Below are positions 30,662 through 59,138 of a stretch of DNA of 64,000 nucleotides, one piece after another. This stretch comes from Escherichia phage 04086. The DNA is taken from sequence record OR842557; one strand, 5' to 3'. The translations under genes and the position numbers were made by a program. The notes below the pieces were generated by a model. The model saw only the letters and a list, made by a program, of their open reading frames with translations. It had not been told where the DNA came from and made no database searches. Positions within the stretch are counted from its first letter, which is position 1. Every line of letters begins with the position of its first letter.

Positions 30662-30738
30662 GGCCCTGTAGCTCAATGGTTAGCAGCAGTCCCCTCATAA
30701 GGGAAAGGTTACCAGTTCAAATCTGGTCCGGGTCACCA
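30662..30738 (+). tRNA. tRNA with CAU anticodon (Met or Ile2)
   Basis: 77 nt; acceptor stem, T-arm accag-TTCAAAT-ctggt, anticodon loop cuCAUaa, encoded CCA; D-arm irregular and one acceptor mismatch. Confidence 0.6.
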
Positions 30739-30743
30739 ACTAT

Positions 30744-30818
30744 GTCCCGCTGGTGTAATGGATAGCATACGATCCTTCTAAGTTTGCGGTCCTGGTTCGA
30801 TCCCAGGGCGGGATACCA
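30744..30818 (+). tRNA. tRNA-Arg (anticodon UCU)
   Basis: 75 nt; 7-bp acceptor stem gtcccgc/gcgggat, anticodon stem-loop cgatc-cuUCUaa-gtttg, T-arm cctgg-TTCGATC-ccagg, encoded CCA; T4 also encodes a tRNA-Arg(UCU). Confidence 0.8.
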
Positions 30819-30829
30819 AATGAAGACTA

Positions 30830-31198
30830 TTATATAGTCAAGCCGTCGTATGAAGACTGATTACCAGCATTCACCGGCGCACCAAACAAGAAACCGGGTC
30901 GCTACCGGTAAGTCGTCGGACTGATGTTCCCTGAATAAGGACTGACATTAACAAATCTTTACGATCTGTTAACGTCCCCTTACATCACAGCAGAAACGGC
31001 GCACCGAATTATCGATTCGAGGAAATATCTTTGCCGTAAGCCGAGTAGCGTTTTTGACGGAACGTTCGGATATGGTCGAGATATGGCCTTTTAAAAATAT
31101 TGAGTAGCGTCAACTACTTAATAACCGGGTTCGAATCCCGGCGTTTCGTACAAACACTTGCCTAGCAGGTGGAACCCCAACAAGGTTGCCGCAAGGCA
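30830..31198 (+). ncRNA. candidate small stable RNA region (possibly T4 RNA C/D-like), including a tRNA-like T-arm
   Basis: About 370 bp without an ORF directly after the tRNAs; canonical T-arm ccggg-TTCGAAT-cccgg at 31125-31141 with possible acceptor pairing cggaacg/cgtttcg; followed by a strong terminator. T4 has stable RNAs near its tRNA cluster, as I recall it. Confidence 0.35.
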
Positions 31199-31199
31199 T

Positions 31200-31228
31200 A
31201 GCCCCTTCCGAAAGGTTGGGGCTTTTTG
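31200..31228 (+). terminator. intrinsic terminator
   Basis: gcccc-ttccgaaaggtt-ggggc followed by TTTTT. Confidence 0.7.
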
Positions 31229-31268
31229 GCATAATAAATAGATAAGTTAATTAACTTAGGAAATAATA

Positions 31269-31477
31269 ATGAAAACTTACAATGAATTTTTGACCGAACA
31301 ATCTAGTTCAGATGTAAAAGCCGCTGCGATTGCAGCAATTCAAGCAGGTAAATATTCTTACAAAGACGCCTCTGATGAAGAACGNNNAACAAGGTTGCCG
31401 CAAGGCATAGCCCCTTCCGAAAGGTTGGGGCTTTTTGGCATAATAAATAGATAAGTTAATTAACTTAGGAAATAATA
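31269..31477. repeat. N-flanked duplicated block (assembly artifact)
   Basis: NNN at 31385-31387; 31269-31384 equals 31478-31593 and 31388-31477 equals 31179-31268. Confidence 0.75.
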
Positions 31478-31942
31478 ATGAAAACTTACAATGAATTTTT
31501 GACCGAACAATCTAGTTCAGATGTAAAAGCCGCTGCGATTGCAGCAATTCAAGCAGGTAAATATTCTTACAAAGACGCCTCTGATGAAGAACGTTTCCGT
31601 TTTATTAAAGATTTTAAAGCCGAAGGTTTTACTAATGCCAATACTGTTAGCCGAGTTTTTAAAAGCCTAGCTGCATCAGGTGAATTGTTCCAGAAAGCTA
31701 CAGGTAAAGCACCTGCTACAAAAGCGGACCCTAAAGCCTCTCAAGAAAAAAATATCGCCAAAGGAATTATTTCTAAGTATGAAGCAATTCTTAAAGAGCT
31801 TTTAGTAATCAAAACAGAAGGCCAGAAACTAGCACGAGCACATAGCTTCAAAGATAATCCGCATGCTCACGACTTAGAGTATGTTGAAGATATTCAGAAA
31901 ATCATCAAAGACCGTATCTGGTCTGCTAAACAAATCAAATAA
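31478..31942 (+). CDS. internal protein-like (capsid-targeting leader variant)
   Basis: 154 aa; N-terminus MKTYNEFLTEQ resembles the capsid-targeting sequence MKTYQEFIAE; lysine- and alanine-rich body. Confidence 0.55.
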   Translation: MKTYNEFLTEQSSSDVKAAAIAAIQAGKYSYKDASDEERFRFIKDFKAEGFTNANTVSRVFKSLAASGELFQKATGKAPATKADPKASQEKNIAKGIISKYEAILKELLVIKTEGQKLARAHSFKDNPHAHDLEYVEDIQKIIKDRIWSAKQIK

Positions 31943-58164: not shown

Positions 58165-58322
58165 TTGAATTAATGTTGGTTGTTTTATATCTTATCATCG
58201 GTATTGGTTATGCTAAGACCCTAGCTAAATTAGATGATTCAGGTGACTTTTGTTGGTGGTTGACGTCTATGATTTGTTGGCCTTTATTTCTGGTTGGTGC
58301 TTCATTCTGGAACTTCAAATGA
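58161..58322 (+). CDS. small hydrophobic protein
   Basis: 53-aa ORF (below the ORF-track cutoff); ATG overlaps the nrdC stop; MIELMLVVLYLIIGIGYA... Confidence 0.35.
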   Translation: MIELMLVVLYLIIGIGYAKTLAKLDDSGDFCWWLTSMICWPLFLVGASFWNFK

Positions 58323-58627
58323 TTGAATTAAACGAACAAACCATTTTTCTAGGTGATGGTACCGAAGATGACCTGGAATATAAACTATACGAATATATGG
58401 TTTGGCTGGCTAAAGCAGAAGGTATAGACTTTGCTGTAGCTCACCCGTATGGCGAGAACACCGTTGTAATAGGTGGCACCGCTTATGAAGTCCAATGGCA
58501 ATACGTTGGGCTTGAATCTGAAGAATTTGAAGAAGATGAACATGGCGATTGGCATCCAGTCGGCCCTTGGTACTGGGAACACGGTGAACCTGATTTTGAA
58601 GTAAGTAGTTGGTGGTGTGACCGTTAA
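58319..58627 (+). CDS. hypothetical acidic protein
   Basis: 102 aa from ATG 58319 (MIELNEQ...); an identical second copy at 58751-59061 is an assembly duplicate. Confidence 0.5.
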   Translation: MIELNEQTIFLGDGTEDDLEYKLYEYMVWLAKAEGIDFAVAHPYGENTVVIGGTAYEVQWQYVGLESEEFEEDEHGDWHPVGPWYWEHGEPDFEVSSWWCDR

Positions 58628-58704
58628 GCCATGGTATGTCGCTCGGTGGGAAACTACCGAGCCAGAGGAACCGGTTTACAACGATTCCGAAATAGAGTAT
58701 AATG

Positions 58705-59138
58705 NNNTTGTTGGCCTTTATTTCTGGTTGGTGCTTCATTCTGGAACTTCAAATGATTGAATTAAACGAACAAACCATTTTTCTAGGTGATGGTACCGAA
58801 GATGACCTGGAATATAAACTATACGAATATATGGTTTGGCTGGCTAAAGCAGAAGGTATAGACTTTGCTGTAGCTCACCCGTATGGCGAGAACACCGTTG
58901 TAATAGGTGGCACCGCTTATGAAGTCCAATGGCAATACGTTGGGCTTGAATCTGAAGAATTTGAAGAAGATGAACATGGCGATTGGCATCCAGTCGGCCC
59001 TTGGTACTGGGAACACGGTGAACCTGATTTTGAAGTAAGTAGTTGGTGGTGTGACCGTTAAGCCATGGTATGTCGCTCGGTGGGAAACTACCGAGCCAGA
59101 GGAACCGGTTTACAACGATTCCGAAATAGAGTATAATG
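58705..59138. repeat. N-flanked duplicated block (assembly artifact)
   Basis: NNN at 58705-58707; 58708-59138 repeats 58274-58704 exactly. Confidence 0.75.
59108..59137 (+). promoter_or_regulatory. early promoter (GTTTAC-18-TATAAT)
   Basis: GTTTAC 59108-59113, TATAAT 59132-59137 (same element at 58674-58703 in the first copy); upstream of small ORF 59178. Confidence 0.55.

Follow-up and report, generated by a model that had tools for sequence, protein, structure and literature searches.

The tRNA operon and its distal RNA genes

The window, the whole stretch of 64,000 nucleotides analysed here, comes from a T4-like phage of Dhakavirus type whose closest relatives are Dhakavirus isolates (~99% identity, BLAST). 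It carries an RNA operon that opens with a tRNA gene of anticodon CAT and continues through tRNA-Arg, rnaD and rnaC to an intrinsic terminator. The features of the operon are the following:

30662-30738, + strand: tRNA with anticodon CAT (ARAGORN, called Met; Rfam tRNA model, 50.9 bits; T4T annotation; BLAST synteny)
30744-30818, + strand: tRNA-Arg (TCT) with encoded CCA (ARAGORN, Rfam; identical to T4 tRNA-Arg over the aligned stretch)
30823-30888, + strand: miniature rnaD-like unit of 66 nt, absent from T4 (gap in the T4 alignment)
30889-31005, + strand: rnaD orthologue, T4 species 2 RNA (87% identity to the annotated T4T rnaD)
31012-31150, + strand: rnaC orthologue, T4 species 1 RNA (138/139 identical to the annotated T4T rnaC)
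31155-31171, + strand: trailer hairpin CACUU-GCCUAGC-AGGUG (MFE fold; conserved with T4)
31187-31198, + strand: small hairpin with a GCAA loop, after the trailer hairpin
31200-31227, + strand: intrinsic terminator that ends the tRNA/rnaD/rnaC operon, AGCCCCUUCC-GAAA-GGUUGGGGCU and then a U-run (MFE fold; conserved with T4)

The CAT-anticodon tRNA is assigned to Met by ARAGORN, whereas its T4 counterpart is annotated as tRNA-Ile. This phage has two tRNA genes only, spaced by 5 nt, while T4 has eight. In T4 the homing endonuclease gene segB is inserted between the counterparts of the two tRNA genes of the window.

An earlier note on this DNA had drawn attention to the interval lying directly after tRNA-Arg, a position that agrees with the ARAGORN and Rfam calls for that tRNA. 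As stated there, the interval has no plausible ORF: only mechanical ORFs of 27-40 aa are found and none exceeds 40 aa. The short repeated motifs that it mentioned were located as three pairs, CGGCGCACC[A/G]AA at 30875 and 30997, ATGAAGACT at 30820 and 30850, and GAGTAGCGT at 31043 and 31102. The canonical T-arm also lies exactly where it had been placed, with CCGGG at 31125-31129, TTCGAAT at 31130-31136 and CCCGG at 31137-31141; it is the T-arm of rnaC, because the coordinates transferred from T4 place it within 31012-31150.

Small stable RNAs like those found near the T4 tRNA genes had been proposed for the interval, and this is what it encodes. BLAST matches it in 806 phage records, among them T4 entries in which rnaC and rnaD are annotated at this place. 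In the T4T record (L001) rnaD ("small, stable RNA; species 2", at 2364-2482) comes next after tRNA-Arg, and rnaC ("species 1", at 2489-2627) after that. The pairwise alignment with T4 is collinear from tRNA-Arg through rnaD and rnaC to the terminator, the single exception being a 66-nt gap in T4. The comparison with the two T4 genes, which the note had called for, gave identity at 138 of 139 positions for rnaC (nhmmer E 6.6e-47) and 87% for rnaD (nhmmer E 8e-41). RNA ends in the window are those transferred from the T4 annotation. Transfer places rnaD at 30819-31005 including the insertion at 30823-30888, and the value of 87% refers to 30889-31005.

Orthology and synteny with the T4 rnaD and rnaC genes are therefore observed directly. 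These are already known genes of T4, correctly recognised here, and as textbook features of T4 their presence in a T4 relative is expected; rnaC is left unannotated in Dhakavirus records. Taking identity and biogenesis jointly, we give a probability of about 0.9 to the reading in which the interval forms the distal portion of the tRNA operon and encodes orthologues of T4 rnaD and rnaC.

Searches with Rfam models, at gathering thresholds and at E values up to 10, recovered the two tRNAs and otherwise only chance-level matches (tRNA-Sec, 17 bits; isrK, 16 bits). Since no Rfam family matches, no curated model confirms the class of either RNA. The covariance-model check put forward in the earlier note was thus run and gave no match to the RNAs of the interval, which are nonetheless real orthologues of T4 rnaD and rnaC; taken as a refutation such a null would mislead, because Rfam holds no family for rnaC or rnaD. 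ARAGORN found neither a tRNA nor a tmRNA in the interval. No similar sequence was found in complete genomes of E. coli.

Predicted fold of rnaC

Homologues of rnaC were gathered from IMG/VR contigs and from GenBank phages of the genera Tequatrovirus, Gaprivervirus, Dhakavirus, Kagamiyamavirus, Moonvirus, Kanagawavirus, Karamvirus, Winklervirus, Gelderlandvirus and Marfavirus, giving 24 distinct sequences in the alignment and 24-29 distinct sequences overall, from Marfavirus and at least ten genera of the Tevenvirinae. A metagenome scan for rnaC returned 3 true homologues among 117 matches and no new loop variants. As in T4, rnaC of the window closes the tRNA cluster at its distal end; it has the same orientation as the tRNA genes and is followed by the operon terminator. 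In Kagamiyamavirus, Gelderlandvirus, Karamvirus, Winklervirus and others its homologues either have tRNA genes on both sides or come behind them. Where a genome is rich in tRNA genes the RNA is flanked by two of them, those for Phe and Trp in EcS1, for example, and those for Trp and Gly in both CF-SP2 and VPA32. RNAalifold applied to the 24 distinct homologues yields a four-way junction with these elements:

31013-31019 with 31142-31148, + strand: P1, acceptor-like stem (RNAalifold)
31020-31089, + strand: P2, long arm, with no linker after P1
31054-31059, + strand: UUGACG at the tip of the P2 arm, exact complement of the P3 loop CGUCAA at 31108-31113
31090-31097, + strand: A/U-rich linker
31098-31123, + strand: P3, hairpin of 10 bp with the invariant loop CGUCAA (31108-31113)
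31125-31141, + strand: T-arm, one nucleotide beyond P3
from 31149, + strand: 3' tail UACAA

The seven positions of P1 are C-G, G-C, a covarying pair that is A-U or G-C (8 versus 16 sequences), two invariant U.U, C-G and G-C. Pair counts over the 24 homologues gave 93.4% of cells paired and 21 pairs changed on both sides. None of 500 shuffles was as good, and every slid register reached at most 48%. The window copy taken alone has an MFE of -50.2 kcal/mol (z -4.69) and the same fold as the consensus. The T-loop-type pattern GGTTCRANYCC has two matches in the 64-kb window, in tRNA-Arg and in rnaC, with 0.51 expected by chance. Covariation thus supports for rnaC a predicted tRNA-shaped four-way junction, in which a terminal acceptor-like stem stacks on a canonical T-arm.

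The complementarity between UUGACG at the P2 tip and the P3 loop CGUCAA is kept in 24/24 rnaC sequences, and five further rnaC homologues are likewise complementary. In the Marfavirus clade both sides changed together to UUGGCG and CGCCAA, one double change from A-U to G-C. The two motifs are candidates for a loop-loop contact, either kissing or dimerising, which is suggestive only because the case consists of one evolutionary event plus invariance. A dimer would be as plausible as an intramolecular contact, since the P2 and P3 arms differ greatly in length. The sequence GAGUAGCGU occurs twice in rnaC, at 31043-31051 running into the P2 tip and at 31102-31110 in the 5' strand of P3. This repeat hints at an internal duplication, the loops that follow the two copies being mutually complementary. 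A pairing of the rnaD P0 loop CGCUA with UAGCG, repeated in rnaC, was also considered and dropped: the P0 loop varies freely between genera while UAGCG is constant.

Fold and distribution of rnaD

The fold obtained for rnaD from 21 sequences comprises a 5' hairpin and a closing helix that leads through a conserved internal loop to a variable apex:

30893-30909, + strand: P0, 5' hairpin
30912-30918 with 30997-31004, + strand: P1, closing helix
30919-30935 and 30983-30996, + strand: conserved internal-loop core
30936-30940 with 30978-30982, + strand: P3
30941-30977, + strand: variable apical hairpin

The closing helix GUCGUCG/CGGCG(C)AC shows exchanges between G-C and C-G in several lineages. 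In the core, GAUGUUCCCUG stands opposite AUCACAGCAGAAA and one pair covaries between U-A and A-U in six sequences, while the helix UAAGG/CCUUA bears the variable apical hairpin. Overall 90.6% of cells are paired and 10 pairs changed on both sides, a result that 0/500 shuffles equalled. The compensatory changes in the two alignments indicate that rnaC and rnaD are both under selection for secondary structure. Two known motifs were rejected by eye for the rnaD core. As a hammerhead (CUGAUG ... GAAA) it fails, its flanking strands pairing mutually to give a two-way internal loop and not a three-way junction; as a kink-turn it lacks the G.A/A.G arrangement.

Short forms of rnaD, of ~100 nt, are present in Moonvirus, Kanagawavirus and Marfavirus. 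An unannotated short-form rnaD was found in the Escherichia phage W70, a member of the Vequintavirinae (L007, 1201-1312), where a tRNA-like 3' end (...GGTTCGATTCCACC...CCACCA) immediately precedes it. This copy retains both conserved cores, has compensatory changes in its 5' hairpin and extends the rnaD family beyond the Straboviridae. In bacterial genomes the rnaD core pattern gave chance matches only, and profile matches were limited to the pattern itself.

In the window rnaD does not start directly at the CCA of tRNA-Arg, the 66-nt unit being intercalated after its first 4 nt. Adjacency of rnaD and tRNA-Arg is not a conserved trait, because rnaD follows another tRNA or a coding region in other relatives. 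There are also variants devoid of rnaC (L134-L137, L140 and the GenBank phages MX01 and vB_EcoM_005), in which rnaD, ending in ...GCGCACCGAA, is joined directly to the trailer CACTTGCCTAGCAGG; some of the contigs with this fusion are of Dhakavirus or Gaprivervirus type.

The miniature rnaD-like unit

The 66-nt insertion consists of the hairpin GACUAU/AUAGUC at 30825-30839, AAGCCGUCG at 30840-30848, a short internal hairpin, CGGCGCACCA at 30875-30884 and AACA. Its AAGCCGUCG is comparable to AAGUCGUCG of rnaD, and the 3' end CGGCGCACCA is common to both. The unit has an MFE of -16.4 kcal/mol (z -3.0) and a layout of hairpin plus closing helix as in rnaD. When it is aligned to rnaD, the chained alignment beats 1000/1000 shuffles, whereas the best ungapped block alone does not.

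The insertion is confined to 26 records of Dhakavirus type that share at least 97% identity over it, and a 77-nt query spanning it is 100% identical in IME540. It may represent a third RNA or a 5' extension of rnaD. The rnaD product of this phage could be ~120 nt long, or ~185 nt if the unit stays uncut.

Trailer, terminator and maturation

The strong terminator with which the interval was said to end does exist as a hairpin with a U-run, placed just past that end at 31200-31227. Its stem is formed by 31200-31209 and 31214-31223 around the GAAA loop and is followed by five U, the last at 31227. Several GenBank relatives annotate a terminator at the same place. The U.U/U.U internal loop in its stem is the reason why a simple consensus scanner did not detect it. 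Upstream, a pairing of ACCCCAAC (31173-31180) with the 3' strand of the terminator stem, GGUUGGGG at 31214-31221, is possible in place of the terminator hairpin, and the trailer may thus have a second fold.

The window also contains two NNN runs, each with an exact repeat. After NNN at 31385-31387 the preceding 206 nt recur exactly (31179-31384 = 31388-31593), so that the first part of a 154-aa ORF is present a second time in truncated form. In the close relative UGJNEcP3 this segment is single. The repeat resembles an assembly or scaffold joint left unmerged rather than a biological feature. A joint of the same kind is found at 58705-58707, where a second NNN precedes an exact repeat of 431 nt (58274-58704 = 58708-59138). 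Single N bases occur at 2816, 3096, 22809, 23070, 28499, 62704, 63045 and 63769.

In T4, host enzymes, RNase P among them, mature the rnaC and rnaD RNAs together with the tRNAs. With high confidence, the two RNAs of the window would be co-transcribed with the tRNAs and matured by the tRNA enzymes in the same manner. RNase P would generate the rnaC 5' end, and exonucleolytic trimming from the 3' side would stop at the C-rich ends ...CACC of rnaD and ...GUAC of rnaC. Terminal C residues block 3' trimming by RNase T, which would fit these ends.

Function and alternative readings

To our knowledge the function of rnaC and rnaD has been unknown since the 1970s, and a literature search found no paper assigning one to either RNA. 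Deletions of the T4 tRNA region are viable and rnaC and rnaD are dispensable in laboratory hosts; their function would thus be dispensable or host-specific. RNA-seq and Northern blot showed T4 RNAC and RNAD among the late RNAs (PMC9697503), and their roles were given as unknown in 2010 (PMC3014915), 2022 (PMC9697503) and 2025 (PMC12685909). Accumulation as stable species, of ~140 nt for rnaC and ~120 nt for rnaD, is shown for T4 only.

One published observation touches rnaD. In phage BW-1, all lines adapted to host ECOR34 carry one convergent SNP in rnaD (PMC12685909). From the published coordinate (position 164264) and the public BW-1 record (L418), the SNP is placed at about 30961 of the window, in the apical hairpin of rnaD, where T-to-C reads as A-to-G on the RNA strand. 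On the fold CACAG-UUUUA-CUAUG becomes CACAG-UUUUA-CUGUG, a C.A mismatch being replaced by the C-G pair present in natural relatives such as L042. On this mapping the SNP repairs a stem of rnaD, which argues that RNA structure matters in a host-dependent manner.

The main rival explanation takes rnaC and rnaD for cis-acting punctuation of the tRNA operon, active in processing and termination, with stable fragments that are functionless by-products. The elements are always positioned within tRNA clusters or at their end, some phages have lost rnaC, and decades have passed without any function being found. However, loop and junction sequences that processing should not need are invariant across genera in both RNAs (CGUCAA, UUGACG and GGCCUU...AAAAU in rnaC; AAGUCGUC, GUUCCCUG and GGCGCA in rnaD). 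Moreover, rnaC is 99% identical to T4 while rnaD reaches 87% and the trailer 88%, and the adaptive SNP restores a stem of rnaD. Such a purely cis-acting role is considered unlikely.

It is quite unlikely that rnaC and rnaD are regulatory sRNAs that base-pair with host or phage mRNAs. They are termed small regulatory RNAs in PMC9697503, which gives no evidence, and they do have conserved single-stranded stretches. On the other side, conserved helices occupy most of each RNA, neither has a terminator of its own with a U-tail of the Hfq-binding type, and no target is known.

The degenerate or class II tRNA that the earlier note had offered as an option did not survive the comparison. Such a tRNA, ~94 nt long at 31057-31150, would have ACGGAACG/CGUUUCGU as its acceptor stem, besides the T-arm and a long extra arm; it would still be charged or take part in decoding. 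The possible acceptor pairing held in so far as ACGGAACG can pair with CGTTTCGT, while the conserved pairing is a different one and covariation is missing here. The Rfam tRNA-Sec model aligns 31057-31149 with 17 bits (E 1.8) on the internal pairing 31057-31064/31142-31149, this pairing is possible in 85.7% of cells, and the equivalent stretch is annotated 'tRNA-OTHER, tRNA-???' in the GenBank relative G9062 (L419, 327-422). Against this, neither ARAGORN nor the Rfam tRNA model calls a tRNA in 30819-31245, and the internal pairing has zero changes on both sides, is matched or beaten by 500/500 shuffles and is broken in diverged clades. The strand concerned instead pairs locally, in the P2 tip hairpin with its five covarying pairs, and the conserved fold closes the whole 139-nt RNA. 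The absence of a D-arm, a loop of 6 nt at the anticodon position and the lack of CCA add to the missing covariation of the internal pairing in showing that rnaC is not a tRNA. The ~94-nt tRNA is largely refuted by covariation and is very improbable.

That the interval codes for small proteins is hardly credible: hypothetical CDSs overlap rnaC homologues in the GenBank records of F48, NM4.3 and Ursula (L009 616-753, L169 642-815 and L170 666-776) and the window has its mechanical ORFs of 27-40 aa, but substitutions in the helices are compensatory and not codon-structured, strand and frame of the ORFs vary between phages, and the T4 annotation here is of RNAs. The protein and 'tRNA-OTHER' annotations in F48, NM4.3, Ursula and G9062 probably mark a mis-annotated RNA gene.

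With rnaD and rnaC taken as orthologues of the T4 RNAs, a tentative function can be proposed for each. The likeliest one, though the odds are against it, is that rnaC mimics a tRNA without decoding and so occupies or titrates a tRNA-recognising factor of the host, and that rnaD is a second structured RNA with a host-dependent effect on fitness. A broader proposal is more doubtful. It would see in rnaC and rnaD two distinct and widely conserved classes of structured phage RNA without a curated family. Here rnaC would be a putative decoy whose complementary loops lock a compact fold or a dimer, and rnaD, reaching into the Vequintavirinae, would tune infection host-specifically, for example against a tRNA-targeting defence; Dhakavirus would make a third, miniature RNA of the rnaD type.

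The interest of these RNAs lies in an unsolved function, in the lack of an Rfam match and in the structural and comparative handles now available. Each RNA has a fold supported by covariation, and for rnaC the correct terminal stem can be told from the tempting internal one and the loop complementarity is defined. Phages without rnaC, phages with an additional mini-rnaD and other genera with a short-form rnaD provide a natural series of variants, to which a published adaptive SNP adds one that repairs a stem on the rnaD fold. Spurious protein and 'tRNA-OTHER' annotations over these RNAs are also flagged in public records.

Comparison with known systems

Like canonical tRNAs (RF00005), rnaC is encoded in a tRNA operon and features an acceptor-like stem of seven positions continuous with a T-stem of 5 bp and the loop UUCGAAU. 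It differs in having neither a D-arm nor the U8/N9 linker, a long arm replacing the D-arm. Its 'anticodon' arm, of 10 bp, ends in a loop of 6 nt, the acceptor-like stem contains tandem U.U, and no CCA is encoded, a nearly invariant ACAA taking its place; tRNA detectors miss it. The tRNA-like domain of tmRNA likewise pairs the 5' and 3' ends beside a T-arm, with the rest of the molecule inserted at the site of the D and anticodon arms. Unlike tmRNA, rnaC has 139 nt and not ~360, and lacks the tag reading frame, the pseudoknots, G3.U70 and CCA; the tmRNA search of ARAGORN was negative and no tmRNA family is found among the Rfam matches up to E 10.

The YrlA RNAs, Y-RNA-like RNAs of bacteria and phages, are non-coding tRNA mimics handled by tRNA enzymes. 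Their ends form the Ro-binding stem and their tRNA-like part is distal, whereas the ends of rnaC form the acceptor-like stem; the likeness is that of a non-coding tRNA mimic. Y-RNA-like families are absent from the Rfam matches up to E 10.

The closest known systems are the T4 RNAs themselves. T4 rnaC has the same sequence (138/139), the same position after rnaD and before the terminator, the same strand and the same fold, with no material difference. T4 rnaD shares with the window copy the 5' hairpin, the closing helix, the internal-loop core and the 3' end GGCGCACC, and the differences behind the 87% identity are concentrated in the apical hairpin. While T4 rnaD begins right after the CCA of the tRNA, the rnaD of the window is separated from tRNA-Arg by the 66-nt mini unit.
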